Assembly (NCBI GenBank): GCA_004321885.1
Contig: SCQK01000007.1
Coordinates: 64,001-128,000, forward strand
Length of the DNA: 64,000 bases
Origin: Patescibacteria group bacterium
Lineage (GTDB): Bacteria; Patescibacteriota; Patescibacteriia; Magasanikbacterales; GWA2-37-8
Reading direction: 5' to 3'
Below the pieces are notes generated by a model that saw only the letters and a list, made by a program, of their open reading frames with translations, was not told the origin of the DNA and searched no databases. Position numbers and translations under genes: made by a program. Below, one piece after another: positions 11,434-58,904 of this stretch (its first letter is position 1; each line of letters starts with the position of its first letter).

Positions 11434-11477
11434 ATGTTTTTCCCTCCCCTTGCGAAGGGGAGGGTTAGGGAGGGGTC

Positions 11478-11906
11478 TTACTCGGGTTTGTAATATCCCC
11501 CGGTATTCACAATCAAAGACAAATCCCTGATTCTGTTATACGACAATCGCGGCATGGCCTTGGCCGCTTCTTCTATTTTTTTCTCCGCGTTCGCTTCGCG
11601 CAATTTTTTCAAATCGGCGTTGGAATATTTTTTCTGCCAGATGCGCAGGCTGGGCCGGCGCGCGGTGCCGGCGATATTTAGGATAAAATAATGAAACGGC
11701 TGGCCGTTGATTTTGACAAAAGCGAAGGTCAGCGACAAGCCGCCGAAAAGCGCGGTGAGGAAAATAAACAAAGCCATGTCGGCCAATTTGAAAGACAAAA
11801 ATATCAACAGACTGCCTGCGAGCAAAATGATAAACTGCCTGGTGGTGATGGGCCCAAAAATTTTGTCTTCCACGTCTATGAATTGCGGCACCGTGAATTG
11901 ATCCAT
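11478..11906 (-). CDS. PrgI-family small conjugation membrane protein (VirB3-like)
   Basis: MDQFTVPQFIDVEDKIFGPITTRQF start and two TM helices, characteristic of PrgI/TcpE-like proteins that accompany VirB4. Confidence 0.55.
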   Translation of the reverse strand: MDQFTVPQFIDVEDKIFGPITTRQFIILLAGSLLIFLSFKLADMALFIFLTALFGGLSLTFAFVKINGQPFHYFILNIAGTARRPSLRIWQKKYSNADLKKLREANAEKKIEEAAKAMPRLSYNRIRDLSLIVNTGGYYKPE

Positions 11907-11907
11907 A

Positions 11908-13101
11908 CTATAATTCTTTCTCCATCGCCACTATCGCTTTTATTTCTTCTATCTTTATCCCGCCTTTTTCCGTCGCTGTCTGCGCCAGGGTTTTTCTGTC
12001 GGCCAACGCGCCGCACACCGCGTCCATGTATTCCAAATAAAGAGGGCTCTGTTTCCAGGCGGCCTGCGCGTCCATATATAATAGGTAGGATTCGTCGCGC
12101 AGGTTGATGAATTTTTGTTTCAGGCGCTGGCCCGCCTCGGCGCAGTTTTGCGCCAAACGGCGAAAATCCGTCAGACTAATATATTTTACCTCATCTATGG
12201 GTCCCATTTCAACAGGCGGAGCGGAAATATCCCGCATGCTCTGTTTTACCGGCGCGCTTCCTAACTTGAACGACGAGGATTGTGTAGCCCCCTCCCCTCT
12301 TAGGGAAACCGTCATCTTCCCCTCCCCTTGATAAGGGGAGGGCTCGCCACCACACCAAAATTTTTGGTGTGGTGGCGAGGGAGGGGCAGTCGCAACCGGC
12401 TTCTCTTCAGGCGCCAAAAGCGCGTGCAAAAGCTCGTTGGCTTTTTTCTTGCTCTCGGGCACAGTTGGTCCCCCCCCTCCTTTAGAAGGAGGGGGCAAGG
12501 GGGTGGTCTTGACCTTTTCTGAATGTTCAAACGGGTTAAACGGAGTTGCTGTCGCCGGCAACAATACCTCTTCGCACGCTCCCGCCGCTTTCTCGGCCTG
12601 ATTGGCCGTAAAACCCATGCCACCGTCTTTTATGGAACGCAATAAAATATTTTTCGTTTCTTCGGGCGAGCGCACGTCTTTGAGGCGCAACTGAATAATA
12701 CTGCGCAAGCGATTGATAAAGTTGGGCGGCACTGGAAAATTTATTTTTTTGAGCGCCTGGTCCACCTGGCTTAGGCGCGGCTCGCTCAATTTCGGCGCGT
12801 CGCCCTTGGCCGGCGCCGGCTCTTCCAAAGGCGACCGAAAATCATTATTCGCTTTCTTCGTTCCCATCATCGGCGCCGTGGGATACGGCGGTCGTTTTGG
12901 CGCTACTTTCACTCCCTCCCCTTTTAGGGGAGGGGCAGGGAGTGGGGTATTGTGCGCCGCTTGTCTTACCTGCGACAAAGGCATGCGCACAAAACTGCCG
13001 TCGGCCTTTTTTACCAAAATTGTTGGTTCGTTTGGCATATTATTTACCCCTGCCTCCCTCCCCCTTAAATAAAGGGGGGGACAGGAGGGGGTATTATTCA
13101 C
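11908..13101 (-). CDS. Pro-rich hypothetical protein with four in-frame GC-hairpin repeat insertions
   Basis: the first 20 codons are encoded by a repeat, so the likely true start is MPNEP at about 13038; repeat-encoded segments at 12286-12345, 12470-12500 and 12912-12950. Confidence 0.45.
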   Translation of the reverse strand: MNNTPSCPPLYLRGREAGVNNMPNEPTILVKKADGSFVRMPLSQVRQAAHNTPLPAPPLKGEGVKVAPKRPPYPTAPMMGTKKANNDFRSPLEEPAPAKGDAPKLSEPRLSQVDQALKKINFPVPPNFINRLRSIIQLRLKDVRSPEETKNILLRSIKDGGMGFTANQAEKAAGACEEVLLPATATPFNPFEHSEKVKTTPLPPPSKGGGGPTVPESKKKANELLHALLAPEEKPVATAPPSPPHQKFWCGGEPSPYQGEGKMTVSLRGEGATQSSSFKLGSAPVKQSMRDISAPPVEMGPIDEVKYISLTDFRRLAQNCAEAGQRLKQKFINLRDESYLLYMDAQAAWKQSPLYLEYMDAVCGALADRKTLAQTATEKGGIKIEEIKAIVAMEKEL

Positions 13102-14425
13102 TAACTAATTTTAAGTCTTTCGCCACCTGCGCGGCCAAGGATTCCACGCTGTCAAATTTTTTGGGCAGGCGCAAATAACGTTCGGTGCGCGCTTCTATTT
13201 TTTTTCCATACAAATCGCCCGCAAAATTCAAAACATGAACTTCCAGGCAGTCTTTTTTTGTTAAAGAATTATATCCATAATATAGCAAGCCGGAATACCC
13301 CTTCCCCTGCCCCTCCCCTAAAAGGGGAGGGTGGCTATCGGTGGTTCCTCCCCTTTTTAGGGGGAGGACAAAGGAGGGGGTATTCGCAATGAAAGCGACG
13401 GAGCACGTATACAATCCCCTGGGCAAATTTTTGGCCAGCGCCACGTCCAAGTTGGCCGTGTGAATCCCTACTTTATCCCCTTGTCCATAGCCGGGCAAAA
13501 CCGCGCCGGCCACCACGCGCGAACGGTGTAAAAACACAATTCTGGTTACGGCCGCCGCCAGCGCCGCCGCTCCCAAAATTTGCGTGGCCGATAACGCGTT
13601 GCCATTTAAATAATAATCCAAAATAATGGCGGACACGGGCCAGGACAGCTCGCACAAAGTCGCCACCGAAGCGGTGATTTTTTTCAGGCCGAAATAGTAC
13701 AAAAACATGGCCGCGGCTCCGGATGTAAAAACTATAATGATTAAAGTCGTCCACTGGGCCGCGCCCACCGACGGCAGAGAGGAAAAATAGCGCGCCGCCG
13801 GAATCGCCATAATCAAAACCGTGAGCCCAAAGCGCAAAGCCGCCAGCAGGCCATAGCTGATATTTTTTAGGGAATATTTTCCAAAGGTGGTGGCCGAACC
13901 CCAGGCAAACGCGGCCAGCATGGAAAAACCGGCGGCAATGGGAACAGCCGACATCGCGCTAGAAACCGCGAACGGATTTTTGAAAGTAACAAAATATCCC
14001 GCGACCAGCGCGAGCGGGGCGTAAAAATAAAACGAGCGCGGAAATCGCTCGCGTAAAAATATGGCGGCCAAGATAATCGCGAAAATCGGCTGAAATTTTT
14101 GCAAAAGAATCACTACGGAAATATCTTTGAAGCCCGTGGCAAACAAGGCCTTGGTGATAAAAATCGTGCCCAAAGCCCCGCCAAACAAGGCCACCCAAAA
14201 AATTGCGACCCACTCTTTGCGTTTTATCAGTTTTAACTGGGCGCGGTAAACAACCAAAAACGGCAACAAGGCGACAAAACCGAGCAGGTGCTCCAAAAAC
14301 ACCAGCAAGGCCGGTTGCAAGGAATACAAACGGGGTCGCAAAAAAGTGCCGTCCAAACTCCACAGCAGAGCGGCCAGCGCCACGGCCATTGCCCCGATAA
14401 TCACGCTATTTTTTTTCATAATCAT
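13094..14425 (-). CDS. EamA/DMT-family transporter joined to a riboflavin-kinase-like C-terminal domain
   Basis: 10 TM helices, then GYGQGDKVGIHTANL ... LEVHVLNFAGDLYGKKIEARTERYLRLPKKFDSVESLAAQVAKD resembling the RibF kinase domain; a repeat-encoded insertion at 13305-13385. Confidence 0.5.
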   Translation of the reverse strand: MIMKKNSVIIGAMAVALAALLWSLDGTFLRPRLYSLQPALLVFLEHLLGFVALLPFLVVYRAQLKLIKRKEWVAIFWVALFGGALGTIFITKALFATGFKDISVVILLQKFQPIFAIILAAIFLRERFPRSFYFYAPLALVAGYFVTFKNPFAVSSAMSAVPIAAGFSMLAAFAWGSATTFGKYSLKNISYGLLAALRFGLTVLIMAIPAARYFSSLPSVGAAQWTTLIIIVFTSGAAAMFLYYFGLKKITASVATLCELSWPVSAIILDYYLNGNALSATQILGAAALAAAVTRIVFLHRSRVVAGAVLPGYGQGDKVGIHTANLDVALAKNLPRGLYTCSVAFIANTPSFVLPLKRGGTTDSHPPLLGEGQGKGYSGLLYYGYNSLTKKDCLEVHVLNFAGDLYGKKIEARTERYLRLPKKFDSVESLAAQVAKDLKLVSE

Positions 14426-14723: not shown

Positions 14724-15248
14724 TTACGGGGTGCTTTTTTTATACTCAACTTTATTCCTCAAATCACTAACAAAACTAATTTTGCCGCCGGCCACTTTCC
14801 GCAATAAGTACGAGCAACTGGACGGCGCGGGCGCGATCAAGTGGCAAAACTTATTTTGTTTTCGCAAATAGTCAACTAAACAATGAAAATCACCATCGCC
14901 GCTGACAATTACGGCCTGATCATAATTCTGATATTCTATCATCGTGTGTAAAACCAATTCGGCGTCACAATTCCCTTTTACTTCACCGTCTTTCAATATT
15001 AGAGTTGGTTTAAATATCAAAATGTAACCAACCTCCTGAAGAAATTTATACAACTCCTCATTGCCAAATAAAAAACCAATGAACATAAACGCCTTCGCGA
15101 CGCTATATTTGTCTTTCAAATACCTGCGAAAACGAAAATAATCCAGCTTCCAACCAATGCGCTGCATACTGAAATATAGATTCTGACTGTCTATAAACGC
15201 GAAATTGTTTTCTTTCATACTTCGTTTCCCTCCCCGCCCCACTGTCAT
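14724..15248 (-). CDS. NYN/LabA-like domain protein (predicted RNase)
   Basis: FIDSQNLY...KGNCDAELV...SGDGDF motifs. Confidence 0.65.
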   Translation of the reverse strand: MTVGRGGKRSMKENNFAFIDSQNLYFSMQRIGWKLDYFRFRRYLKDKYSVAKAFMFIGFLFGNEELYKFLQEVGYILIFKPTLILKDGEVKGNCDAELVLHTMIEYQNYDQAVIVSGDGDFHCLVDYLRKQNKFCHLIAPAPSSCSYLLRKVAGGKISFVSDLRNKVEYKKSTP

Positions 15249-19650: not shown

Positions 19651-22600
19651 TTATGTTAATTTTTTCAATTGTTCGCTGTCCAATCCTCTAATTAGCTTGA
19701 ATAGCTCCTGAATGTTCTTGATTCCCTGATCCCTTAGCCCCTGATCGTTTTGGGCGTTATTACGGTGCTGAAGTTCAATTTTACTGGACTCCGTCACATT
19801 AAATTCTTTAATATGCCTGACCGCCTCGGCCCCAAGATTATATTTTTGCAAGAAACCTTTAATGGCGGCGGCTTGTTCGTTATTAAGCAACGTAGCGCTG
19901 GCCCGCATTGTTTTGCGCACGCTTTCAATTACTTGTTGCGCTTCTCCACCAAAAGTAGTAGCGACTTCCTGCGCCAGCATATTCATTGTGGCGTCATCAA
20001 TCCAACTTTGTTCAAATAAGCCTTTCAAAATTGTCTGGGCCACCATTTTATCTTCCCAGGTCTGCTTGCCTTTCCCTTTAAGTGTAACATGGTTCATATG
20101 CCCGCGATGCGCCTGGAGCAACTGGTCGTAATTCATGTCCTTGAAATTCTTGAAAAATCCTTCCACCACGGCTTCTTCGGCGGCGGTGTTTGGCACATCA
20201 ATGCCCATATTGCCCCAAATATTCGCTTGCCCGGCCTTAGAAATCATGTCCTGGCGCGTGCCGCGATACAAAGTGTATTGATGATCGCGCAAGGCCAGCT
20301 GATGAGCCGCGTAAAGAGCGGGGTTGGCCGCGCCAGCTTTTCCCCAAACCGCGCTTAATTGTCCGCGCGACTGGGTGAGCGATCCCGACAAAGACTTGCC
20401 GATTTCTTCGACATTAGCCGCCGATCCGGCTTGCCGGAGCTGGCCCAATATTTGCTGTAATACATTGATTTCGGTTTTGGCTAAAAAATTTTCATCCATT
20501 TGCTGTTTGCCAAAAAGGACCTTAAAATTATTTTCAAGAGCGGTACCTTTCGTTGAACTAAGAAATGCTTGCGCGGCTGTTGCGTCAATTTTGCCGCCGA
20601 CTTTAATTTTTTCCATTGCCTTTGTCAGAGTTTCCAAACTCGCGGCCAATTCCTGTATTTTTTGTTGATTGGCGCCGCCGCTAAAAATACCGGCCGCGCT
20701 TTCCATCCCCTTCAATTTATTTTCATCAGCTTCTATTTCAGATTCTAAATTTCCAATCTCGTCAGCCAGCCTAACCCCTCTTTCAGTTTCATCGTCCGTC
20801 GGATTCGCTTTATTATTCAATACACCATACTCTCTTTTCATTTCTTCTAATGCACTCTTTTTAGAATCCAGACCAGTTCTCATTCCTTCAGCTTTTTCCC
20901 CGGCCGCCAACGCGGAAGCCACGCCCTGCAAAGATTGAATTCGCGTTTCGATGGGAGCCGATTCCGCTTCCAGCTTTCCCTTCCCTTTTTCATTTAACGC
21001 GCTTTGCGCGGCCAAAAGATTCTTCTCCTCTTCCGAACTTAATCCTTCTTGTTCAGACTTACTGCGCGCCAAGGCGCTAACATATTGTTCGCCCTGACTG
21101 GTATTTATCAGCCCGCCCCTAACGCTCGCTTCAATAAATTTAATCAGCTCCTCGGCAATTTGCCCGCCCAGTTCGCCCATTTTTTTAGCTTCCACTGTGT
21201 GCCGAAATCTTTGGAAAAACGCCGCCCTATTTCTCTTCGCTCCCATTTCTTCCAACCCGATTTCCGCCTCGGCCCGCGCTTTATGCGCCTGAATTTGTTC
21301 GCTGACTGTTCCCAAACCATATTTGTCTTTTTCACCAATTTGGAATTCGCCGTTCTTAAATCGCGCATTGCCTTTCACCGCGCGGCGGCCGTATGCCTTG
21401 TATTCGGTGGTTTTTTCTTCCGAACGCGCTTGTTCTGCCTCAAGCATGCCCTTTTCTATGCGATCCAACGCGTTAATGGACGGCCCTTCAAAGGCCTGAA
21501 ATAAATATTTTGGATCGGCGCTGATTCTTTTGTCCATCAATTCTTCGCGCACCTTGGCGAACTCCTGCACTCTCTTCAATTGTTTCCGGCTGCGCAAAAG
21601 CTTTTCGTGCCTCCCATGGAAGAAACGCTGAAACGGACCGCGACCCTCGTCAACGACCTGCTCTGTGTACCATTCATCCCCCTCTCGCACAAGCTTCGCG
21701 CCTTTTTTAATATCGGCCGCGGCCGCTTTTTTCGCCTCCTCTTCTGTCGCCACGGCTACTCCGCTTTTGTCGGTAATAAGATTTTTTTTCTTCTTAAAAT
21801 CATACTTCATCTGCGTTATCGCCTTACCATTCTCATCATATAATTTTCCGCTCTCATCGGCTGTTACACGAGCATTTTGTTCATCTTCGGTCAAAGCGTC
21901 TTTAGAATCTACTATTTTATTATTCTCGTCACGCTTAACTTTATGCCATGCTTTGCTTTTTTCGTCATATTCCATCTTATAACCCATCAATTCTTCATTT
22001 CTGGACAACCTGGATTTAATGTTCAATTCTTCCTCCTTCGTTTCCAACCGCGGCCCGCCGGCACGCCAGGCTCGCCAGCCCTCCACAATTGACCTTTGCA
22101 AATCGCCTTTGATTCTTTCAACTCTATTAGCCAATAAACCCTGATACAATCCTTTTCCTGTTAATTTTGCCAAACCAATCCCCGCTTTCTTAGCCCCCTC
22201 AACCCCCTTTTTCGCCGCCCAGCGCGCCGCGGTGTACCCGCTCGCCACCGCCGCCACCTTCTTGCCGAAGTCCGTCACTTTGCCCATCATGGCCCCGCCG
22301 GTTACGCCCAGCGCCTGGGTCACTTTCGCCCCAATCAAAAGCATGCCAATGGCAATGGCGAAGTTGGCCATGGCCGGCCATGTCATTGCCGCCGTAATTC
22401 CGGCGCTCTGGCCGCCAACTTTAATGTTTGACGCGCCCGCTGATTCAATGCCCTCATCGGTAATTTGAACCGGAACCGAATTATTGCTGGGGTCAGCTAT
22501 CTCTTTGCTTACTGTCCCGGACCCCACCACGGCAAAAGACAACCAAAGAAAAAACGCCAAAATCGGCCCGACAATCACGTGATTGCCAAACTCGGTCCAC

Positions 22601-23415
22601 CACTGGCTGGCGTATTTTTGCGTTTGCGGTATGACATTCAAAACAAAAGCCAAAGGGGATAAAATGATAAGCACCCAAAGCACAATCATACGCGCCAAAA
22701 GAATCACCAGATAAACACCCATGGTCACCATAGCCATCCCCGCAAAAGCGACTGCGGCAACCGAAGCCATAAATATGCCGGACATCTTGTAATTCTCCGG
22801 TTGCGTGCCGCCGGCAAATCTTTGTATATCATTAAAATTGAAGGCGTTTATAAGATTGCCGCCGGCCGTGGCCGCCACGCCATTGATAAAAGTTATCATC
22901 ACCACCTGGGCCAGGTCTATAATCAACCCGGCAATGGTGCGGCTGAAATTTACAAGTATCGCGGCAAACAATAATTTCACCAGTAATTTTTTGTATTCAT
23001 ATTGCTCTATGCCCAAAATTGTGCCAAAGGCGATAACGAGCAGGATAATTACAAAAAACATGTTGGTAACATCGCGCACCAACACCCACCCAGTAGTTAC
23101 CGCCGTTGAATCTATAAATCCATTGTATCCCCCAATTTGAATGGTAAAACGCAGAATGAAAATTGTAATCTTCATGAACAACGCCGCCATCCACATGGTA
23201 AAAGTAGTGCCGGCGCTCATTATGGCATCAAAAAATCCATCAGCCTGCGCCACTTCGGCGCCCATCACCCACATCAACAAAACAGTCGTGGCCACCATCA
23301 CAAACGAAACCATGCCCAACTTCCTGCTGGGTTTCAAAAATCGCAAAACAGCGCTCGCGGCCGCGCGCGCTTTTACGCAAACTTTACTCGCCTTTTTCCA
23401 AAGGGAGACAAGCAT
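19651..23415 (-). CDS. VirB6/TrbL-like polytopic membrane protein with a roughly 900-aa charged coiled-coil C-terminal extension
   Basis: about 380-aa N-terminal multi-TM domain, then a Lys/Glu-rich low-complexity region; context with VirB4 and PrgI. Confidence 0.55.
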   Translation of the reverse strand: MLVSLWKKASKVCVKARAAASAVLRFLKPSRKLGMVSFVMVATTVLLMWVMGAEVAQADGFFDAIMSAGTTFTMWMAALFMKITIFILRFTIQIGGYNGFIDSTAVTTGWVLVRDVTNMFFVIILLVIAFGTILGIEQYEYKKLLVKLLFAAILVNFSRTIAGLIIDLAQVVMITFINGVAATAGGNLINAFNFNDIQRFAGGTQPENYKMSGIFMASVAAVAFAGMAMVTMGVYLVILLARMIVLWVLIILSPLAFVLNVIPQTQKYASQWWTEFGNHVIVGPILAFFLWLSFAVVGSGTVSKEIADPSNNSVPVQITDEGIESAGASNIKVGGQSAGITAAMTWPAMANFAIAIGMLLIGAKVTQALGVTGGAMMGKVTDFGKKVAAVASGYTAARWAAKKGVEGAKKAGIGLAKLTGKGLYQGLLANRVERIKGDLQRSIVEGWRAWRAGGPRLETKEEELNIKSRLSRNEELMGYKMEYDEKSKAWHKVKRDENNKIVDSKDALTEDEQNARVTADESGKLYDENGKAITQMKYDFKKKKNLITDKSGVAVATEEEAKKAAAADIKKGAKLVREGDEWYTEQVVDEGRGPFQRFFHGRHEKLLRSRKQLKRVQEFAKVREELMDKRISADPKYLFQAFEGPSINALDRIEKGMLEAEQARSEEKTTEYKAYGRRAVKGNARFKNGEFQIGEKDKYGLGTVSEQIQAHKARAEAEIGLEEMGAKRNRAAFFQRFRHTVEAKKMGELGGQIAEELIKFIEASVRGGLINTSQGEQYVSALARSKSEQEGLSSEEEKNLLAAQSALNEKGKGKLEAESAPIETRIQSLQGVASALAAGEKAEGMRTGLDSKKSALEEMKREYGVLNNKANPTDDETERGVRLADEIGNLESEIEADENKLKGMESAAGIFSGGANQQKIQELAASLETLTKAMEKIKVGGKIDATAAQAFLSSTKGTALENNFKVLFGKQQMDENFLAKTEINVLQQILGQLRQAGSAANVEEIGKSLSGSLTQSRGQLSAVWGKAGAANPALYAAHQLALRDHQYTLYRGTRQDMISKAGQANIWGNMGIDVPNTAAEEAVVEGFFKNFKDMNYDQLLQAHRGHMNHVTLKGKGKQTWEDKMVAQTILKGLFEQSWIDDATMNMLAQEVATTFGGEAQQVIESVRKTMRASATLLNNEQAAAIKGFLQKYNLGAEAVRHIKEFNVTESSKIELQHRNNAQNDQGLRDQGIKNIQELFKLIRGLDSEQLKKLT

Positions 23416-23885: not shown

Positions 23886-24284
23886 ATGACTGATTTAGCC
23901 AGGCAACTGGAATTTTGGCTTTCGTCGGCCTCAAAAAATTGGCAGACCGCACTTTCTCTGTATAAATTAGGCCATTATGACATGTGCTTATTTTGCTGTC
24001 ATTTGACTTTAGAGAAAAAACTTAAAGCTATTATTGTCTACCTATTGAAAAAAGTACCACCGCCGATTCACGATTTAAATCGTTTAGCGCAAATCGCGGG
24101 GTTAAATGTTTCTCTCACACAACAAGAACAGCTTAATGAAATAACGAAATTTAATATCCAAGCCCGTTACGATGATATAAAATTGGCTTTTTACAAAAAA
24201 GCTACCAAATTATTCGCAAAAAAATATTTGGAAATAACACAAGAATTAATTTTATGGCTGGAAAAAAAATCGGGCGAGAAGTAA
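23886..24284 (+). CDS. HEPN-domain protein (TA-like partner of MNT)
   Basis: 132 aa alpha-helical; overlaps the downstream nucleotidyltransferase by 31 nt. Confidence 0.55.
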   Translation: MTDLARQLEFWLSSASKNWQTALSLYKLGHYDMCLFCCHLTLEKKLKAIIVYLLKKVPPPIHDLNRLAQIAGLNVSLTQQEQLNEITKFNIQARYDDIKLAFYKKATKLFAKKYLEITQELILWLEKKSGEK

Positions 24285-24592
24285 TGGAAAAAGTCGGTAA
24301 ATTAAAAAAATCTATTGAAGCGGACGGCATAAAAGTGCACAGTATATTTGTGTATGGCTCGTATGCGAAAGGGAATGCGCACAAATGGAGCGACATAGAT
24401 GTTTGTGTCGTTTCAAAAAATTTTGGGACAAAAATTAAAGAGCCGCAGAATTATTTATGGTCTAAGCGCGTAGTTTTACACGATTATTCTTTAGAACCGA
24501 TTGGATTTAGCTATAAAGATTTTAGATTTAGTAATTCACCTTTAATTAGCGAGGTACGTCGTACTGGCGTAAATATCGGCGATAAGGTATGA
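24254..24592 (+). CDS. minimal nucleotidyltransferase (MNT)
   Basis: VYGSYAKGNAHKWSDIDVCV (GS-x9-DxD). Confidence 0.7.
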   Translation: MAGKKIGREVMEKVGKLKKSIEADGIKVHSIFVYGSYAKGNAHKWSDIDVCVVSKNFGTKIKEPQNYLWSKRVVLHDYSLEPIGFSYKDFRFSNSPLISEVRRTGVNIGDKV

Positions 24593-41285: not shown

Positions 41286-41299
41286 TCTCTATCGTTCGT

Positions 41300-41330
41300 G
41301 CCTCGCGCCACCCCGCGAGGCGTTTTTTTT
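41300..41330 (+). terminator. rho-independent terminator
   Basis: CCTCGCG-CCACC-CCGCGAGG followed by T8. Confidence 0.6.
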
Positions 41331-41337
41331 AAATAAA

Positions 41338-41368
41338 TATCCCTCCCCTTCTAGGGGAGGGATAGGGG
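41338..41368. repeat. family-C GC hairpin (CCCTCCCC-TTCTA-GGGGAGGG)
   Basis: part of a bidirectional terminator region downstream of groEL; other copies at 11443-11470, 13055-13095, 49612-49650, 50937-50975, 55803-55835 and 58826-58868. Confidence 0.7.
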
Positions 41369-41395
41369 GGAAGAGCGCCTTGTTTTCTGCTCTTG

Positions 41396-44892: not shown

Positions 44893-44960
44893 CTTAAATT
44901 TGACATTGGGAATTGAATATTGGACATTGATTGGTCATTGGTAATTGGTAATTTTTAATT
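44893..44960. repeat. about 70-bp repeat (TTTGACATTGGGAATTGAATATTGGACATTGATTGGTCATTGGTAATTGG)
   Basis: inverted copy at 49290-49365. Confidence 0.7.
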
Positions 44961-45972
44961 TCCACTCTTCTCTATATTTCGCCCTGGTGTCATTCTCGTG
45001 AAATTTCAAAATGCCGTCGGAAATCACCACGCTCTTGTCGCCCGCGGCGGCTTTTTCTTTCAAAGAGAACATAAGCCGAGCCATCTGAAGCGCTTTTACC
45101 TGCCCTTCAATCAAATCGCCATACGTTCCGGCCCACATTTTTTCCCAAATTGTTTTCCAAATTTTGCCAAGCCGTGAATCGCGCAAACGCAAGCGCGAAA
45201 CAACTTCAAATCGCGCCAAGGCATTGGGCAAGTATTTTTTTGTCCACGAATTCGCGGCCAAAAAATTGGCGTAATAATTGCCGGGGTCGTATATCGGAAT
45301 CATCTGGTGTATCCAATAAGCAAAATGTATGTCATCATCGGCCACGCGTAAATTTTCCAAATTTAAGTGTTCGCTGTCCGCGTAAAACGACAAACAGACG
45401 CGATTTTTGTGCTTTTGGCCATACACGCGCAAACCCCACAATCGCAAAATTAAATTGGTAAAAAACCGCGCCAACCAGACGCGGCGCGGGGCGGCGACGA
45501 TGAAAAAATCAATGTCGCTTTCTTCCTTCGCCTGCTCCATACCCACGCTGTTGCAGACAAAAACCGCTTTCACAAACGGCGCCGAACGGATTTTTTTGGC
45601 GGCCCGGCGCGCGATTTTTAATTTCTTCTCCGTTTCCGCCAGCCGCGCCCGCCGCGCCTCAACTGTCCCCGCTCGCCCGGGAAGAAAATAATAACTGAAT
45701 TTTGTTTCAACCTTTCTGTCATCCTGAACTTGCTTCAGGATCTCTAAAAATTGCGCAAACCCCATCGCCGGCGCCTGCCCCCACACCAAAGAATTTGGTG
45801 TGGGGGGCGTCCACAAAAAAGAATACACCTCTTCGCGCGTCAGAGGATAATCGGCCGAATCAAAATAAGCCAGAGTTTTCTGAATACTTTCAAGAAGAGC
45901 TTTTTCCATAGGGCTCTTTGTCTGAAATTTCCGCCGCACAAATTGCCAAGCCCTTGTTGCCAATTTCCACAA
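44935..45972 (-). CDS. nucleotidyltransferase-domain protein (Pol-beta-like NTase superfamily)
   Basis: NSVGMEQAKEESDIDFFIV; contains in-frame family-D (CCCACACCAAAGAATTTGGTGTGGGGG) and family-E palindromes. Confidence 0.45.
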   Translation of the reverse strand: MWKLATRAWQFVRRKFQTKSPMEKALLESIQKTLAYFDSADYPLTREEVYSFLWTPPTPNSLVWGQAPAMGFAQFLEILKQVQDDRKVETKFSYYFLPGRAGTVEARRARLAETEKKLKIARRAAKKIRSAPFVKAVFVCNSVGMEQAKEESDIDFFIVAAPRRVWLARFFTNLILRLWGLRVYGQKHKNRVCLSFYADSEHLNLENLRVADDDIHFAYWIHQMIPIYDPGNYYANFLAANSWTKKYLPNALARFEVVSRLRLRDSRLGKIWKTIWEKMWAGTYGDLIEGQVKALQMARLMFSLKEKAAAGDKSVVISDGILKFHENDTRAKYREEWKLKITNYQ

Positions 45973-49396: not shown

Positions 49397-50290
49397 TCAT
49401 TTCATAATTATATCTCCAATTTCGTCCGTTCGTAAAATTTCCGCGGCCGCACGTTCTAATTTTTTCAACACTCGCAAAGAGGGATGACCGTACCTATTTT
49501 TTCCCACGGAAATTATCGCTTTATCCGCGTTTACGGCTCGCAAAAACTCGGCGCTGGTGGAACTATCGCTGCCATGATGCCCGACTTTCAAAATATCGGA
49601 CCTCAACGCTGTACACCCCTCCCCTATTAGGGGAGGAACAGGGGGAGGGGTATTTTGGCTAGAACAATACTTCGCCAGCAACGCCTGCTCCAGCGGTTCC
49701 TCCATATCGCCGGTAAACATTATAGTCGTACTCGCTCTGGAAAGCCGGAAAACAATTGAACGATTGTTATAATCCCCATCTTTTGTATCTATGCCCAGGG
49801 CCGGGTCCGGGGCCAAAAAATTCAGCTCTGAACCGGCGAACGCCAGCTCTTTCGGGCCGCTTATCACGCTTGCAACCGCCCTCTCTTCCTGCTGGTATCT
49901 GTACCAAACCTGCCAGTACGCGTCAAATTCTTTCTTGGCTCCATTGGTGATAATATTTTTTACCTCGTATCTTTTTAAAACATCCGCACAGCCGCCGTAA
50001 TGGTCCAGGTCAGGATGCGTAATCAGCAAATAATCAATGGTGCGGTCGTAAAACGGCAGATACTTGCCCAGTTTAGTCAGCACTTTGCGATTGGGTCCGC
50101 AATCCACCAGCATTTTTGCGCCGTCATCAAACTGTATCAGCGCCGAGTCGCCCTGACCCACGTCAAAAAAAATAACGCGAAAACCTTTTTCCGCGAAAAA
50201 AAACAAATTAAAAAGCAAACCGAGAATTATTATCAGGCAACCAACCAGGGCCGAAACTACTTTCTTGCGCATAAAATCTGATTCACCCAC
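49397..50290 (-). CDS. MBL-fold hydrolase corresponding to the ComEC C-terminal domain (stand-alone, TM-anchored)
   Basis: FFDVGQGDSALIQ...DCGP...ITHPDLDHYGG...VGHHGS; an in-frame GC hairpin at 49612-49650. Confidence 0.65.
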   Translation of the reverse strand: MGESDFMRKKVVSALVGCLIIILGLLFNLFFFAEKGFRVIFFDVGQGDSALIQFDDGAKMLVDCGPNRKVLTKLGKYLPFYDRTIDYLLITHPDLDHYGGCADVLKRYEVKNIITNGAKKEFDAYWQVWYRYQQEERAVASVISGPKELAFAGSELNFLAPDPALGIDTKDGDYNNRSIVFRLSRASTTIMFTGDMEEPLEQALLAKYCSSQNTPPPVPPLIGEGCTALRSDILKVGHHGSDSSTSAEFLRAVNADKAIISVGKNRYGHPSLRVLKKLERAAAEILRTDEIGDIIMK

Positions 50291-50928
50291 TGTTCGTTTT
50301 CTTTGACAAAAATTTCTTTTTCCACGCCAAAAGATAGCTCTTCCAAGAACGCGCGGATTTTTTCCGGACGATGATAATATGATTCAATGAGCACTTCCAC
50401 CCCGCCGGTTTTCACGAGCGGCGGGTCTTTTTGGTTGATATTGGTCACCACAAAAATTCCGCCGTCTTTGAGCACGCGATAGACCTCGTCAAAAAACCGG
50501 CGCGGATCTTTTAGGTGCGCGATAAGAAAAGCGGCCAGCACGATGTCAAAGGTTTCGTTTGCAAACGGCAAATTTTCCGCGTCGCCCACCACTGTCGTAA
50601 TGTCATACTGAATTTGTTTCATTATCTCCGGTCGCAAAATTTTTCGCTTCAGCATCTCCAGCATCTTGGGCGAGATGTCCAAAGCGGTCACGCACGCTCC
50701 CCGCTTGGCCAAATACAAAGAGGCCCGCCCGGTGCCCGCGCCGACATCCAAAATTTTTTTGCCCGCCACCACACCAAAATTTTTAGTGTGGTGGCCGGAC
50801 ACGTCGCCGAGCATGGAAAATAATTTTCCCTGTTCAAAACTGTTCAGGTATTTTTCTTTTTCATCGTAATACTTGGCCGCCAAATTATATCCTTCGGCCG
50901 ATGACAGAACCTGTATTTTTTTGGTCAT
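50257..50928 (-). CDS. class I SAM-dependent methyltransferase
   Basis: ILDVGAGTGRASLYLAKRG motif I; a family-D palindrome in frame (50765-50800). Confidence 0.7.
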   Translation of the reverse strand: MTKKIQVLSSAEGYNLAAKYYDEKEKYLNSFEQGKLFSMLGDVSGHHTKNFGVVAGKKILDVGAGTGRASLYLAKRGACVTALDISPKMLEMLKRKILRPEIMKQIQYDITTVVGDAENLPFANETFDIVLAAFLIAHLKDPRRFFDEVYRVLKDGGIFVVTNINQKDPPLVKTGGVEVLIESYYHRPEKIRAFLEELSFGVEKEIFVKENEQWVNQILCARK

Positions 50929-52463
50929 AGATGTTTACCCCTCCCTAACCCTCCCCTTATAAAGGGGAGGGCAATAATAATATACAACAATATCGTCATC
51001 CACCAGCTGATTCGTATTTCCAGCGCGGCCCAGCCCTGTTTTCCAAACCATTCCACTAACATTATAACATACCCAAGTCCGACGCCAACAATCCAGGCCA
51101 CTATCTGTCCCAAAGGAAAAAATATGAAACCGAGCATGACCGCGGCGAATCCAAAAAGCATCAGCCACGGGATAATCCACAGCACCAGCAAATTCACGAG
51201 CGGCGCAACGATAGAGAGGCGGCCGAATTGAAACAGCATCAAAGGCAAAGTGGCGATGATGGCGGAAAGGGTTTGCACCAATGTTTGAAAGAAAAAATTA
51301 ATACTGTCATTGCGAGGAGCCGGAAGCGACGAAGCAATCCCAAGCGATAAATATACGAGTCCCAAAGTCGCTAAAAAAGACAGTTGAAACCCCGCGTCCC
51401 ACACCAGCACGTACGGATTAAAAAGCAACATCAGCGCCGCGGTCAGCGCCAGCACATTGCCCACGCGCGACAAGCGACCCATTTGTTGCGCCAGCAAAAC
51501 AATCACGCCCATTATTCCGGCGCGCACCACCGAAGCCGAGGCGCCGGTAAAGAGCACGAATAAAATTATGCCAACGACCACGGCCCAAAACGCGCGAGGG
51601 CGCGACAGCCCGGCCAGAATAAAAAAACTCATCAGCGCCAAGGCGATGATACTAATGTTGTATCCGGATATGGCGATAATATGAGTGATGCCCGAACGAT
51701 TAAAATCCTCCAGCAGCTCCGTCGGCAGGCCGCTACGCGCGCCGTAGAGCAGTCCGGCCATCAAACTGCTCTTCGGCTCTGGCCAAAGTTTGTCCACCTG
51801 ATTCGCGACAGCCGATTTAAGGCGTAACATGTCATTGCGAGCGACCGTAGGGAGCGCGGCAATCCCATTCTTTGCAAGGGATTGCTTCGTCGTTTCACTC
51901 CTCGCAATGACAGGATTCCCGCACACCGACCAAATCCCATAGCGCGCCAAATACTGGTCATAGCGAAATCCGTCCGGGCTCGCTTTTGGCTCTTGCAATA
52001 CACAAGACAAATTCAACTCCTCTCCATACTCATAGCGCGGATACAGTGGCAGCCAAAAAATAATTTTACCGGAAATATTTTTTGGACAAACAAACGACTG
52101 CCCCGCGCAACTTTTTACTTTCGCCACGTATTTCACGTTGCTTATCCCCGCTTCCGGCTCTTCGCTTACAGCCGCCGTCACTTCCATTTTCTCGCCGTTG
52201 TAATATTTGATACTGCTCGGCGTGATTTTCGGCACGCTGATTAAAAAACGCAAGCCGCCCAAAATAAAAAACAACGCGCAAAGCAGGGCGAAGCGCCAAA
52301 CTTTTTTCTGCCACAGCATTACGGCGAAAAAAAGCGCGGCAAACGCCGCGATAAACAAAGGAAACTGCCAATCACTATTTTCCTGAAGCGAAAACAAACT
52401 CACGCCGGCTATAAAACAAAAGCAAAACGCGAGAAACGTTTTGCTTTTAGAGTGCATTGTCAT
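50925..52463 (-). CDS. comEC: ComEC/Rec2 competence channel protein (N-terminal + competence domains)
   Basis: IIAISGYNISIIAL ... SASVVRAGIMG ... GFQLSFLATLG; start placed at MTMHSK (52463), because the longer ORF call would overlap leuS by 220 nt; two family-A elements in frame. Confidence 0.7.
   Translation of the reverse strand: MTMHSKSKTFLAFCFCFIAGVSLFSLQENSDWQFPLFIAAFAALFFAVMLWQKKVWRFALLCALFFILGGLRFLISVPKITPSSIKYYNGEKMEVTAAVSEEPEAGISNVKYVAKVKSCAGQSFVCPKNISGKIIFWLPLYPRYEYGEELNLSCVLQEPKASPDGFRYDQYLARYGIWSVCGNPVIARSETTKQSLAKNGIAALPTVARNDMLRLKSAVANQVDKLWPEPKSSLMAGLLYGARSGLPTELLEDFNRSGITHIIAISGYNISIIALALMSFFILAGLSRPRAFWAVVVGIILFVLFTGASASVVRAGIMGVIVLLAQQMGRLSRVGNVLALTAALMLLFNPYVLVWDAGFQLSFLATLGLVYLSLGIASSLPAPRNDSINFFFQTLVQTLSAIIATLPLMLFQFGRLSIVAPLVNLLVLWIIPWLMLFGFAAVMLGFIFFPLGQIVAWIVGVGLGYVIMLVEWFGKQGWAALEIRISWWMTILLYIIIALPFIRGGLGRGKHL
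51831..51911. repeat. family-A palindromic element in frame inside comEC (a half copy at 51305-51341)
   Basis: encodes ...IAALPTVARNDM... Confidence 0.8.
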
Positions 52464-52474
52464 TTTAAACACGC

Positions 52475-55012
52475 TCACACAACTATACTCACCAACTTTC
52501 CTTTCACGTAAATCACTTTCTTGGGTTGTTTGCCTTCCAGCCATCTCTGAATTTTTTCGCTGGCGAGCGCGCGGCTCTTCGCCTCTTCTTCGGAGATTCC
52601 CGCCACCACTTCCAAAGTGTCGCGCAACTTGCCATTCACCTGCACGGCCAGAGTGATTTCTTTTTCTTTGGCCAGCTCGGGGTCGTACTTCGGCCACGGT
52701 TCAAATGTGATGGATTTTTTATGTCCCAATAGCGACCACAACTCTTCGCACATGTGCGGAGCGAAGGGCGAAAGAATTTTTACGAATAATTCAAAATTCG
52801 CGATGGAAATTTTTGCCTGCTTTGAAAATTCATTACTCAATTCCATCATTTTCGCTATGGCCGTATTAAATCTCATCGCTTCAATATCTTCGGTGACTTT
52901 TTTGATTGTTTGGTGAAGTAGCTGCGTCATGCTGTCATTGCGAGGAGCCGAAGGCGACGTGGCAATCCCTTTCTTTGTTTGGGATTGCTTCGCTTCGCTC
53001 GCAATGACATTGAGCCCCCACACCCTCTCCAAAAACCTACGCACCCCTATCAATCCATTCGTATCCCACTCCACGGCCTGGTCAAACGGCCCCATGAACA
53101 TTATATACGTGCGCAAAGAATCCGCGCCGAATTTTTCCACCATTTCGTCCGGGTTTACCACGTTGCCTTTTGATTTACTCATTTTTTCTCCGCCTTTGGC
53201 TAAAATCATGCCGTGGCTGGTGCGTTTTTTGTACGGCTCACGCGTGGGCACAGCGCCGATGTCAAACAAAAACTGATTCCAAAAACGGGAATACAACAAA
53301 TGTAGAACCGTGTGCTCCATGCCGCCATTATACCAATCCACGCCGCCTTCGCCCGGCTTCGCGGGCTTCGGCGGGCAAAGCCAATATTTTAGCTTTTCCA
53401 TTGAGGCCAATTTCTTATCGTTTTTCGGGTCGCAGTAGCGCAAAAAATACCAACTGCTTCCGGCCCAATTCGGCATGGTGTCTGTTTCGCGCCGAGCCGG
53501 GCCGCCACATTTCGGGCATTTTGTTTTCACCCATTTTTCCATCGCGGCCAAGGGCGATTCGCCTGTGTCGGTCGGCTCATATTTTTTCACTTTCGGCAAT
53601 TCCAAAGGCAAATCTTCTTCCGCCAGCGGAATCCATCCTGGATTCAATCGCTCACCATCGTTTGGAAATTGGAAATTGGAAATTGGAAATTCCGCTTGTT
53701 TTTCGCACGCGGGACAAAAAACAAGCGGGATGGGTTCGCCCCAATAGCGCTGTCGCGAAAACACCCAATCGCGGAGTTTGTATTGCACTTTTTTCTCGCC
53801 AATCTTTTTTTCTTCCAGCCACTTCATTATTTTTTCCATCGGCTCGGGCACGATTTCCTTTATCGGCAAATTAAATTTCTTGGCAAACTCACTGTCGCGC
53901 TCGTCGTGCGCGGGCACGGCCATAATGGCGCCGGTGCCATAACCGGCCAAAACATAATCCGCTACCCACACCGGAATTTCCTTACCCGTGGCCGGGTTAA
54001 TCGCTTTGATACCCTTCAATTCCACGCCTGTTTTCTCTTTTTGAAGCTCTGTCCTCTCTAAATCCGATTTTTTCTTAGCTGATTCAACATATTTTTTTAC
54101 TTCGTCTATATTTGGAAATTGGAAATTGGAAATTGGAAATTTGAGGAGCGAAGCGACGAGTTCATGTTCGGGCGCGACAACCATGTACGTGGCGCCGAAG
54201 AGAGTGTCGGGGCGAGTGGTGAAGACCTCAAGCACACTGTCATTGCGAGGAGCCGAAGGCGACGTGGCAATCCCTTTCTTTGTTTGGGATTGCTTCACTT
54301 CGTTCGCAATGACAAATTTAATCATCGCGCCTTCGCTTCTGCCAATCCAATTTTCCTGCTGGACTTTTGCGCGTTCAATATAATCCACCTCTTTCAAGCC
54401 CTCCAGTAATTTATCCGCGTACTTGGTAATCGCCAGCATCCATTGCTCCTTATTGCGCCGCTCCACCGGCGTACCACAGCGCTCGCACTTGCCGTCCACC
54501 ACTTCCTCGTTGGCTAAGCCGATTTTACACGACGGGCACCAGTTTATGGGCATGGCTTTTTTGTAAGCCAAACCGTGCTTGAAAAGCTGTAAAAAAATCC
54601 ACTGGGTCCATTTGTAATATTTCGGGTCCGTGGTATCCACCTGCCGCGACCAATCAAAACTTAAACCGAGCGATTTTAGCTGGCGCGTGAAATTGGAGAT
54701 GTTTTTTTTCGTCACCTCGGCCGGGGGTTTGCCGGTCTTGATAGCAAAATTTTCCGTCGGCAGGCCGAAAGCGTCAAATCCAATAGGATACAAAACATTG
54801 TAGCCCTCCATGCGGCGCTTGCGCGAAATAATATCCATGGCCGTGTAGGCGCGCGGATGTCCCACGTGCAAACCCTCGCCGCTCGGATACGGAAACTCAA
54901 TCAAAGAATAAAACTTCTTTTTTTTCTTATCTTCTTTAACCTCAAAAGTCCCGTTCTCTTCCCAAAACTTCTGCCACTTTTTTTCAATTTTTTTCGGGTC
55001 GTATTTTGGCAT
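52475..55012 (-). CDS. leuS: leucine--tRNA ligase
   Basis: HVGHPRAYT (HIGH) and KMSKS motifs, 845 aa; in-frame family-A elements twice ([20 protein letters not shown] duplicated) and (GGAAATT)n runs twice. Confidence 0.9.
52934..53009. repeat. family-A palindromic element in frame in leuS
   Basis: copy at 54239-54314. Confidence 0.85.
53663..53691. repeat. (GGAAATT)x4 heptamer microsatellite in frame in leuS
   Basis: second run at 54107-54140; encodes [10 protein letters not shown] twice. Confidence 0.85.
54239..54314. repeat. family-A palindromic element in frame in leuS
   Basis: near-identical to 52934-53009. Confidence 0.85.
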
Positions 55013-55790: not shown

Positions 55791-55895
55791 ACTTTATACC
55801 CCACCCTGTGTCCCTCCCCTAAAAGGGGAGGGGAATGTTTGCGTGCCTACATTTTATCGCAAACAGGGCTAAAAATCAAATTACGCCCGGATAAA

Positions 55896-56682: not shown

Positions 56683-56697
56683 TTGTGTTTAATTATT

Positions 56698-56804
56698 AGC
56701 AAAGTTTTGTGATTTTTTTCGCAGCGGCCATCGCACCCCCAAGGGGCAGTGGTCGCCGCAGGCGACCCTGTTTGGCCGCAAAAAAAAATTCACAAAACTT
56801 TGCC
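56698..56804. repeat. second copy of the conserved-core hairpin element (between the infB stop and trxA)
   Basis: see 56193-56313. Confidence 0.7.
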
Positions 56805-56805
56805 T

Positions 56806-58824
56806 TTAACTTAACACCAACTTTTTCTCCTTTTCCTCTTCCTTGTAACACTCCAGCACATCATCTATCTCCAATTTTAATTTACCCTCAAACTGCGCCC
56901 CGCACTCGCTACCCTCGGGCACTTCGTTCAAAATCTGCTTGGCCACCTGCAACTGCGACAACTTACCCAAGCCGATAATCTCTTCCCCGCGCTTTACTCG
57001 CGCTTTACAGCCCTTCTGCAGTTTGCCCTGTTCCACGCGGCCGCCGACTATCATATTGCCCTTGCCGGTGCGGAAAATCGCCACCACCTTGAACACCCCG
57101 AGTTCAGTAGTAATTTTTTCCGGACTCAACAACTTGCCCATTTCTTCTTTGACGAAATCCAGCAGGTCGTAAATTATTTTGTACTCATTATACACTAATT
57201 TTTTATCGCGCGCCATTTCTTGCGCCACCGGGTTGATGGTAACATTAAAAGCAAAAAGCATGGCGCCGGCGGCTTCGGCCTTGGCCACGTCATCTACCGT
57301 CACATTGCCCAGGCCCTTGCCCACCACGCGCACGCCCACCTCGTCATTTTTAATTTTTCCCAGCGAACCGATAATCGCTTCCAGCGAGCCGAGCGTATCG
57401 CCCTTCACCACCACGTTCAAAACCTTCTTTTGCTCGTCGCTTTCAGCCGCGCCCAGGGCAAAAGTTTCTTTTTCCGCGCCCATCTGCTTATTTTTTTTCT
57501 CTTTTATGTCAATGGCCTTGGCCCCGGCGGCCGCGGCCACGTCCAAAATATCCCCCACGGCCGGCGCCACCTTAAATCCCAGAATGCGCGCCGGACAGCT
57601 GGGCGGGGCCGTCAGCAAATTTTCTCCTTTGTGATTTTTCATGGCCCGCACCTTGCCGTAAATCTCGCCGTTTATCACCAGCGGGTCGTTCACGCGCAAA
57701 GTGCCGGTCTGCACCAAAATCGTGGCCACCGGGCCTTCGCCCTTGTCCACGTGCGCCTCAATGACCGTGCCCGCGGCCGAGCGGTCCGGATTGGCTTTAA
57801 TGCTGTCGGCATGCACGTCGGCCACTAAAAGCAACACATCAAGTAGCTTATCTATGTGCAAATTCTGTTTGGCGGAAATTTCCACCATGGGCGTGTCCCC
57901 GCCCCACTCCTCGCCTATCACTCCGTTTTGCGACAAATCAACGCGCACCTTTTGCGGGTCAGCTCCCTCTTTGTCAATTTTATTGAGCGCCACCACGGTC
58001 GGAATTTTGGCGGCCTTGATAATGTTTATCGCTTCCAAGGTTTGGGGCTTGACGCTGTCGTCGGCCGCCACCACCAGAATGGCGATGTCAGCCACCTTGG
58101 TGCCGCGGCTGCGCATCACCGTAAAGGCCTCGTGCCCGGGAGTGTCTATAAATGTCAGGGGGGATTTTTCTTTGGTTTTGGGATTGGTCCAAATCACCTG
58201 ATAAGCGCCGATGTGCTGGGTAATGCCACCAGCCTCGGATTCCATGACATTGGTGCGTCGAATAGCGTCTAACAATTTTGTTTTACCGTGGTCAACGTGC
58301 CCCATCACCACGATAACGGGCGGGCGGCGCGTGGTAGCGTCCGCGGCCAAAATTGATTCCAAATTATTTTCGTGCGCCGAGACTGCTTCGGTTTTTTGCT
58401 CGGGTTCGCGCACGGTAAAACCGAATTCCTGCGCCATCAGCACGGCCGTGTCATGGTCCAGGCGCTCGTTTTGCGCAGCCAAAATTCCGTTTTTCATGAG
58501 TTCAACGATAAGGCCGGTAACCGGCATCTGCAAAATATCGGCGAATTGGCGCACGGTCAGCTGGTTTGGTATGGCCACGCTGGCGCCGCTCGTCTGGCGC
58601 GCCTCTTTTTCCAGCTCTTTTTGTTTTTCTTTTTCCTTGCGCTCGCGCTCTTCCAGCACGAACTTTATCCGTTTCCAGGCGCGCTGAATCTGCTGGGCCA
58701 CGCGGTCATCCACTTTCACGGCCCGAGCGCCGATATCAAAACCAAACTCTGGCAAAATTTGCAAAAGTTTTTGGGGGTGGACTCGGAGTTGTCTGGCCAG
58801 TTCGCTTACGTTCATAAAGCTCAA
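56806..58824 (-). CDS. infB: translation initiation factor IF-2
   Basis: GHVDHGKT, DTPGHEAF and NKID GTPase motifs, 672 aa. Confidence 0.9.
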   Translation of the reverse strand: MSFMNVSELARQLRVHPQKLLQILPEFGFDIGARAVKVDDRVAQQIQRAWKRIKFVLEERERKEKEKQKELEKEARQTSGASVAIPNQLTVRQFADILQMPVTGLIVELMKNGILAAQNERLDHDTAVLMAQEFGFTVREPEQKTEAVSAHENNLESILAADATTRRPPVIVVMGHVDHGKTKLLDAIRRTNVMESEAGGITQHIGAYQVIWTNPKTKEKSPLTFIDTPGHEAFTVMRSRGTKVADIAILVVAADDSVKPQTLEAINIIKAAKIPTVVALNKIDKEGADPQKVRVDLSQNGVIGEEWGGDTPMVEISAKQNLHIDKLLDVLLLVADVHADSIKANPDRSAAGTVIEAHVDKGEGPVATILVQTGTLRVNDPLVINGEIYGKVRAMKNHKGENLLTAPPSCPARILGFKVAPAVGDILDVAAAAGAKAIDIKEKKNKQMGAEKETFALGAAESDEQKKVLNVVVKGDTLGSLEAIIGSLGKIKNDEVGVRVVGKGLGNVTVDDVAKAEAAGAMLFAFNVTINPVAQEMARDKKLVYNEYKIIYDLLDFVKEEMGKLLSPEKITTELGVFKVVAIFRTGKGNMIVGGRVEQGKLQKGCKARVKRGEEIIGLGKLSQLQVAKQILNEVPEGSECGAQFEGKLKLEIDDVLECYKEEEKEKKLVLS

Positions 58825-58904
58825 CTACCCTCTCCTGTTAGGGGAGGGATAAAGGGATGGGGTATCCACTCAATATCCCTAAAATCTTACTCTCTTACAC
58901 TGAA

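Follow-up and report, generated by a model that had tools for sequence, protein, structure and literature searches.

The closest described system to the repeat reported here is an Escherichia coli element named first BoxC, then PIT (potential intrastrand triplex; Hoyne and Maher 2000), and then TMECO (Holder et al. 2015, PMC4666352). Its pattern, 5'-CCCTCNCCC N3-6 GGGNGAGGG N3 GGGNGAGGG, is that of a class II purine-motif intrastrand triplex; 3610 copies were counted in 262 proteobacterial genomes, many G/C-rich triplex motifs were noted in cyanobacteria, and loci bearing the motif showed elevated instability (PMC4666352). By circular dichroism (CD) and nuclear magnetic resonance (NMR), the latter giving 18 imino signals, the isolated E. 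coli strand forms a very stable triplex and no G-quadruplex (PMC4666352). Copies in E. coli K-12 are "always intergenic," the E. coli elements lie 10-310 nt from open reading frames (ORFs) with no trend, and they have no linked transposase (PMC4666352); according to Maher's work cited in the same paper, PIT elements have neither promoter nor terminator activity. How does a GC-rich, hairpin-forming repeat from a member of the Patescibacteria compare with this class? The repeat is scattered over a 64-kb stretch of DNA (contig SCQK01000007.1 of assembly GCA_004321885.1, positions 64,001 to 128,000), hereafter the window, and its arm structure points to a new host for the same class of element.

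The repeat is strongly enriched in the window. Its pyrimidine arm, CCCTCCCC, occurs 24 times on the two strands, against 1.72 expected from dinucleotide-preserving shuffles, none of which (0 of 100) matched that count, and a profile built from an alignment of 12 window copies retrieved 15 full copies and one partial copy (Table 1). The original prediction, made from the sequence alone, of a GC-rich hairpin family with more than 12 copies in 64 kb is thereby borne out: every coordinate that it listed holds a copy. The range that it gave, 11443-58868, does contain copies but is too narrow, since three more (6395, 7688, and 7738) lie upstream of it. The two-arm hairpin that it described is present as well, but a constant third arm, and hence the triplex architecture, had been missed.

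On the G-rich strand, the aligned copies read CCCTCCCC-TTWWA-GGGGAGGG-N2-5-GGG[A/T]GGGG-TATT, ~40 nt in total, with a pyrimidine arm, a loop, a purine arm, a short loop, and a second purine arm in that order. The third arm, GGG[A/T]GGGG, is constant and starts 2-5 nt past the hairpin; what had been taken for a "(GTATT)" tail is its end. The pyrimidine and purine arms are Watson-Crick complementary over 8 nt and enclose a short loop, as in the triplex class, and the hairpin CCCTCCCC-TTWWA-GGGGAGGG folds as DNA at about -10 kcal/mol. Arm 3 mirrors arm 2, being neither a direct copy nor a complement of it, and it is the existence of three registers in the window that allows these relationships to be told apart. 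Arms 1, 2, and 3 are CCCTCCCC, GGGGAGGG, and GGGAGGGG in the canonical register; CCTCCCCC, GGGGGAGG, and GGAGGGGG in the (5,2) register (copies 7688 and 13346); and CCCCCTCC, GGAGGGGG, and GGGGGTGG in the (2,5) register (copy 12471). This arm geometry is that of an intramolecular purine-motif (class II) triplex, in whose predicted fold an antiparallel third strand would place G over G-C and A or T over A-T.

We aligned window copies with the four E. coli TMECO sequences given in Table 1 of PMC4666352. Both families have a pyrimidine arm, a purine arm, and a mirrored purine arm in the same order, a total length of 34-40 nt, equal loop sizes, and A or T opposite the A-T pair; the TTA second loop of the E. 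coli type A element recurs in window copies 11440 and 50935. Both are dispersed, multicopy, and found in inverted pairs, with neither a linked transposase nor a terminator tail. The arms themselves differ, those of the window being 8 nt long with one A (CCCTCCCC), whereas those of E. coli are 9 nt long with two non-G positions (CCCTCNCCC), and the host here is a Patescibacterium, whereas the class was described from E. coli. Unlike the E. coli elements, some window copies carry hairpins nested in loop 1 or loop 2, and the intergenic ones adjoin start codons. Placement differs too, with 10 of the 16 window copies in frame inside genes, although location is no part of the definition of the class. 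Because the alignment, the mirrored arm, the complementary arms, and the dispersal all agree with that class, the window repeat has every property that membership calls for at the level of sequence, and we assign it to the BoxC/PIT/TMECO intrastrand triplexes with a probability of about 0.7. Searched at the gathering threshold, Rfam returned only two tRNAs in the window and no RNA family over the repeats, and literature searches on the raw motif and on palindromic in-frame elements in Patescibacteria found nothing about these repeats.

Is the mirrored third arm peculiar to this genome? We searched for the exact hairpin CCCTCCCCTWWWAGGGGAGGG in one genome of each GTDB species, which gave at least 116 loci, and for the shifted hairpin CCTCCCCCTWWWAGGGGGAGG in viral and metagenome contigs. 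The matches listed for CCCTCCCCTWWWAGGGGAGGG include Bacteroidota, Cyanobacteriota (including Vampirovibrionales), Alpha-, Beta-, and Gammaproteobacteria, Planctomycetota, Chloroflexota, Bacillota, and Patescibacteria/Magasanikbacteria. Among these listed matches, a third arm stands beside 86 of 122 hairpins (70%), either 2-5 nt away or beyond an inserted GC hairpin, and across phyla about 70-80% of hairpins have an arm 3. In viral contigs, the (2,5) hairpin pattern matched nothing but two unrelated long palindromes. Elements of other taxa have an open frame for 150 nt on either side in roughly a fifth of cases, a hint that other genomes may have genic copies too.

Where arm 2 changes register, arm 3 changes with it. 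Copies with a G4AG3 hairpin have a distal arm-3 G-run of 4 nt in 76 of 80 cases, and those with a G5AG2 hairpin have one of 5 nt in 97 of 115, a register shift with a Fisher's exact p = 1e-38 that overstates the number of independent events, because the copies share descent. The mirror rule is seen in four registers and several phyla, and 43 distinct copies with other loops or registers, outside the scan patterns, gave Spearman coefficients of 0.83 and 0.73 for the two G-run pairs. Altogether, the single A shifts in mirror fashion from arm 2 to arm 3 in the window and at about 240 loci in at least seven phyla, and arms with two asymmetrically placed A residues are mirrored as well, at two Patescibacteria loci (GGAGAGGGGG..GGGGGAGAGG and GGAGAGGGGG..GGGGGTGAGG). 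Two simpler origins of arm 3 fail on this point. A direct repeat of arm 2 was ruled out, for with the G-runs of arms 2 and 3 lettered a to d, d tracks a and not b. A truncated four-arm palindrome was also rejected: inverted pairs exist, as near 13044-13095 in the window and at 7-18 of the scanned hairpins, and leave the mirroring of arm 3 unexplained. The comparative register shifts thus argue that triplex geometry, and not the hairpin alone, is what has been constrained across phyla.

Which strand would carry the constrained structure? A purine-motif triplex permits either A or T opposite an A-T pair. At the center of arm 3, where A, T, and C were allowed in the scan, the canonical and G5AG2 sets have, respectively, T in 57 and 65 copies, A in 21 and 48, and C in 15 and 3, the C cases being attributed to a different, cyanobacterial arm (GGCGGGGAG); in 76% of copies, arm 3 is immediately followed by a T. 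A central T would fit a purine-motif triplex on the G-rich strand and would be noncanonical for a pyrimidine-motif triplex on the C-rich strand. RNA does not form purine-motif triplexes (literature cited in PMC4666352), and this, together with the central T, points to selection on the G-rich DNA strand and not on the mRNA. That the fold is constrained suggests in turn that the folded strand is recognized, whether during copying or by a host process.

How do the in-frame copies relate to the genes that hold them? As predicted, they include copies in the flavokinase (RibF-like) domain, in the metallo-beta-lactamase (MBL) domain, and, four times, in the Pro-rich 376-aa protein. Homologues of the EamA-flavokinase fusion, of about 415 aa, lack a 28-aa segment that copies 13294 and 13346 encode. 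Copy 13346 is absent from all aligned flavokinase homologues, whereas copy 13294 alone has a counterpart, in a relative (L244, flavokinase 68% identical) at 1059-1097, with the same codon position and orientation; this shared copy suggests long persistence, homogenization among copies, or a reusable insertion hot spot. In solved homologues of the ComEC-type MBL domain, a gap of 13 residues coincides exactly with copy 49615. A conserved Patescibacterial family includes the 376-aa protein, whose four copies fall in variable linkers between conserved blocks. Of the copies checked directly, three of four are absent from homologues or solved relatives, and the fourth is shared by a relative. Essentially no copies occur in 21 kb of a 66%-identical relative, so the expansion is lineage-specific. 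The prediction of mobile modules thus holds insofar as the repeat is dispersed and behaves like inserted DNA, being missing in homologues and seated in variable linkers; mobility itself is deduced, not observed.

Selfish palindromic DNA that settles in frame within the genes of a small, compact genome, in surface loops and linkers of proteins, has a parallel in the Rickettsia palindromic elements (RPEs) that Ogata et al. reportedly described in 2000. RPEs are said to be Rickettsia-specific and about 100-150 bp long, against ~40 nt for the window element, and to have no triplex architecture; they are not known to be related to it in sequence. Genes in the window include those for PrgI, a VirB4/TraG-like ATPase, ComF, ComEC, GroEL, LeuRS, IF-2, RNase Y, RF-1, and KsgA, a set in keeping with a Patescibacterial host, and the product of 13094-14425 shares 100% identity with the NCBI protein EPN28_01850. 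ComEC is split between a competence/DUF4131 ORF (50925-52697) and a ComEC-type metallo-beta-lactamase ORF (49397-50290), with a class I methyltransferase (MTase) gene (50257-50928) between the two.

We propose that the repeat is a selfish, nonautonomous, structure-defined DNA element that selection has filtered into gene junctions and protein linkers, any effects on translation being incidental. When the G-rich strand becomes single-stranded, in replication, repair, or transcription, arms 1 and 2 would pair as a Watson-Crick hairpin, and arm 3 would return along the major groove, antiparallel to arm 2, to form G·G-C and A·A-T or T·A-T triples. The family would spread as structured single-stranded DNA copied by an activity acting in trans, and copies would survive only where they are tolerated, which in a 90%-coding genome would mean gene junctions and disordered protein loops or linkers, the genic copies being read in stop-free frames (NTPxPxPPLKGEG or PPLLGEGxG). 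Effects on expression would be by-products of the purine arms: a stable mRNA hairpin everywhere and, in G-sense copies just before a start, a free GGGAGGGG that could serve as a ribosome-binding site. The estimate of about 0.7 applies to the identity and class of the element; our confidence in this mode of spread is lower.

Several observations count against the proposal. In vivo dimethyl sulfate (DMS) footprinting in E. coli showed no protection, and the triplex went undetected (PMC4666352). No Y1/HUH or DDE transposase was found among the scanned window ORFs, no target-site duplication at any of the 14 copies examined, and no identical pair of copies in the window apart from a nested 26-mer. 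The G-rich strand is the plus strand in 11 of the 15 full copies and the minus strand in 4, a bias that is not significant and that the proposal leaves unexplained. The shared descent of the copies, noted above, tempers the covariation statistics, and a purely selfish model does not predict that five of the six intergenic copies should sit at start codons. A miniature inverted-repeat transposable element (MITE) was ruled out, the repeat being asymmetric, with three arms, and without a target-site duplication.

Could the copies instead serve the genes that they adjoin? Their placement relative to gene boundaries is, as had been anticipated, nonrandom on the scale of the window. Of the full copies, 6 of 15 are intergenic, against 10% noncoding sequence in the window (P = 0.003), and five of these six lie no more than 20 nt 5' of a start codon, ending 1-17 nt before it, where 10.5% is expected (P = 7e-5; the window gene list is crude, and if the true intergenic sequence were half as much, our hand-estimated P would be about 0.003). 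The sites are those foreseen at junctions and in 5' untranslated regions: the PrgI/226-aa, flavokinase/376-aa, and ComEC/MTase junctions and the sequence before the starts of the inositol monophosphatase (IMPase) gene and infB. At three junctions no spacer remains outside the element, which also overlaps the stop codon of the gene before it; two of the start-adjoining copies stand in spacers of 150 and 509 nt, so tight-junction crowding cannot account for those two. In predicted mRNA folds of G-sense copies (e.g., copy 50935), arm 3 is left unpaired 8-10 nt before the ATG. These facts would suit portable modules for translation initiation or coupling, in which the purine arms act as Shine-Dalgarno (SD) sequences and the hairpin ties initiation to ribosomes that terminate upstream.

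We nevertheless consider such modules unlikely to be what the family is. Coding sequence holds 10 of the 16 copies; most window genes lack a strong SD; and in C-sense copies, the GGGGAGGG near the ATG is locked in a hairpin, the predicted mRNA folds reaching about -21 to -31 kcal/mol. The distances that separate the E. coli elements from ORFs are trendless, as described above, and in 199 elements of other taxa start codons are broadly spread, with no peak at 5-15 nt (from crude ORF calls, with no matched control). The predicted SD module thus survives as a local pattern but not as a general role, and the mirrored covariation of arm 3 is something that it leaves unexplained. The association with start codons is real in the window and may reflect selection or opportunistic use as ribosome-binding sites; it neither defines the function of the family nor explains the third arm.

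A second alternative is a selected G-quadruplex, built from the four G-tracts of arms 2 and 3 and competing with the hairpin. Canonical copies do read G4-A-G3-N2-5-G3-A/T-G4, a textbook motif with the four G3 tracts that define a quadruplex candidate, but the common registers G5AG2..G2[A/T]G5 and G2AG5..G5TG2 do not have four such tracts and still keep the mirror rule. Conservation extends to the C-rich arm, which is complementary to arm 2, and the E. coli relative, with its 18 imino signals, is a triplex by NMR (PMC4666352); these facts together leave a quadruplex very improbable. As a homopurine/homopyrimidine mirror repeat with G-tracts, the element also resembles H-DNA, with the difference that its three triplex strands all lie on one DNA strand and no duplex partner is needed.

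The original prediction also offered the hairpins as terminators, and a related reading would make them rho-independent terminators or mRNA-stabilizing hairpins of the repetitive extragenic palindrome (REP) type, with the third arm a mere passenger. The hairpin is indeed stable, both as DNA and in the predicted mRNA folds, and a T tract on the transcribed strand follows one copy, past GroEL (41338-41364). The other 15 of the 16 copies have none, and most copies lie in coding sequence; elsewhere arm 3 accompanies most hairpins and covaries with arm 2, and the E. coli PIT elements, as cited above, do not terminate transcription. This reading is therefore hard to credit, and the terminator module does not stand. 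REPs and REPINs are mobilized by RAYT (TnpA-REP) tyrosine transposases (PMC2817692, PMC8266576) and are likewise short, GC-rich, hairpin-forming repeats, often in inverted pairs and without target-site duplication, that are presumed to act as single-stranded DNA. They differ in that the window repeat has no GTAG head, no RAYT gene is seen among the scanned ORFs of the window, the third arm is constant and mirrored, and REPs are extragenic. Next to the copy past GroEL, a strong terminator-like hairpin (CCTCGCG..CGCGAGG, 41298-41323), with T8 after it on the plus strand and an A run before it, may be a bidirectional terminator.

Selection at the protein level for a repeated PPLKGEG-like peptide, with no DNA element involved, can be dismissed: the five C-sense genic copies in minus-strand genes do share one frame, which yields NTPxPxPPLKGEG-like peptides, but that frame is simply the one without TAA or TAG, and the DNA is also found in spacers between genes, in either orientation and in other frames, and in unrelated proteins of many phyla.

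Table 1. Copies of the three-arm repeat and of the "D" hairpin in the 64-kb window
Feature	Position	Strand	Location and remarks
Variant three-arm copy	6395..6455	+	In frame, 563-aa membrane protein; nested 26-nt hairpin 6404-6429 in loop 1
Three-arm copy, (5,2) register, 39 nt	7688..7726	-	In frame in ComF
Three-arm copy	7738..7801	+	In frame in ComF; nested 26-nt hairpin 7752-7777 in loop 1
Three-arm copy, loop 2 = TTA	11440..11480	+	Entire spacer from PrgI stop to 226-aa gene; ends 6 nt before ATG
Partial copy (arm 1, loop, start of arm 2)	12287..12305	+	Within 376-aa protein
Three-arm copy with "D" hairpin CCACCACACC..GGTGTGGTGG (12347-12375) in loop 2	12318..12390	+	In frame, 376-aa protein
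Three-arm copy, (2,5) register	12471..12510	+	In frame, 376-aa protein
Canonical three-arm copy	12912..12951	+	In frame, 376-aa protein; peptide NTPLPAPPLKGEG
Three-arm copy	13056..13095	+	Junction of flavokinase stop and 376-aa gene; 17 nt before ATG at 13038
Three-arm copy	13294..13333	-	In frame, flavokinase domain; peptide HPPLLGEGQGKGY
Three-arm copy, (5,2) register	13346..13385	+	In frame, flavokinase domain
Copy with decayed arm 3	41339..41371	+	24 nt past GroEL stop
Three-arm copy	49615..49654	+	In frame, ComEC-type metallo-beta-lactamase domain
Three-arm copy, loop 2 = TTA	50935..50973	-	Forms last 15 ComEC codons; ends 6 nt before MTase ATG
Three-arm copy, arm 3 GGGTGGGG	55795..55834	-	Ends 4 nt before inositol-monophosphatase ATG; 150-nt divergent spacer
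Somewhat decayed three-arm copy	58826..58864	+	Directly 5' of infB start; 509-nt divergent spacer
"D" hairpin	12347-12375		In ORF; nested in loop 2 of copy 12318-12390
"D" hairpin, 1 mismatch	50766-50794	+	In frame in methyltransferase, just before S-adenosylmethionine (SAM)-binding motif
Variant "D" hairpin CCCCCACACC..GGTGTGGGGG	about 45776-45812	+	Inside ORF 44935-45972

Some copies carry further hairpins within their loops. Loop 1 of copies 6395 and 7738, which lie in two different genes, holds an identical 26-nt hairpin, GAGCCTGCCCTGAACTTGTTTCAGGG. Either these two copies form a composite subfamily or the 26-mer is a tiny element in its own right, aimed at the loop. The related "D" family of the original prediction, with the pattern CCACCACACC-A4T5-GGTGTGGTGG, is real but small; its three window copies all lie in ORFs, and one of them, 12347-12375, is not independent, being nested in loop 2 of a three-arm copy. 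GC hairpin insertions in loop 2 are tolerated and are common in other taxa, and 12347-12375 is an insertion of the same kind. Cyanobacterial small dispersed repeats nested in hairpin loops, which Elhai et al. are said to have reported in 2008, offer a lead, and no more, to tiny hairpin repeats inside other repeats, as with the 26-mer and "D" here, in loops 1 and 2, respectively.

Other parts of the window bear on the distribution of the repeat and on mobile DNA. An isolated CCCTCCCC / GGGGCGGGGAGGG stretch at 15218-15248, just 5' of the likely true start of an NYN-domain gene, may be what is left of a decayed copy or else the gene's own ribosome-binding site. Beyond it, the 26 kb from 15300 to 41300 contain no copy, though copies are dense on both sides. 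This segment has low G+C in parts (0.385 at 16-18 kb), strong negative GC and AT skew, and very large ORFs of 1254 aa (19651-23415, no Pfam match) and 2728 aa (28699-36885), and it may be a horizontally acquired island. A tRNA gene (2154-2245) stands beside a 502-aa large serine recombinase (4164-5672) with Resolvase, Recombinase, and zinc-ribbon domains, in the part of the window with the highest G+C (0.586); the segment 2154-5672 looks like an element integrated at a tRNA gene. A 121-aa ORF (26090-26455) has only the zinc-ribbon domain of an IS1595-type transposase and is probably an insertion sequence (IS) remnant. Both the recombinase and the IS1595 fragment were considered as linked mobilizers of the repeat and judged implausible. 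On the strand opposite to the main operons, a HEPN-domain ORF (23886-24284) overlaps a small ORF (24254-24592), and the two may form a toxin-antitoxin or defense pair.

BoxC/PIT/TM repeats, described as early as the 1990s, still lack an explanation both of what they do and of how they spread. The present analysis adds a new host phylum, a majority of copies lying in frame within genes, hairpins nested in the loops, covariation on register shift that supports a triplex, and a local crowding of copies at start codons. The in-frame hosts include ComEC, ComF, the riboflavin kinase fusion, and a protein encoded beside PrgI and a VirB4/TraG-like ATPase. For annotation, repeats of this kind inflate "Pro/Gly-rich" segments of candidate phyla radiation (CPR) proteins, and their hairpins may pass for terminators or ribosome-binding sites. 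The strict mirror covariation in at least seven phyla, the frequent central T, and the T that tends to follow arm 3 prompt a bolder and, in our judgment, doubtful idea: that the folded single-stranded triplex is the substrate of an undiscovered, widely conserved enzyme (such as a structure-specific single-stranded DNA transposase, nuclease, or primase-type activity) that copies the elements. If so, the repeats would constitute a new class of structure-defined mobile DNA, one that in compact CPR genomes would also reshape proteins by inserting in frame and would provide ribosome-binding sites.

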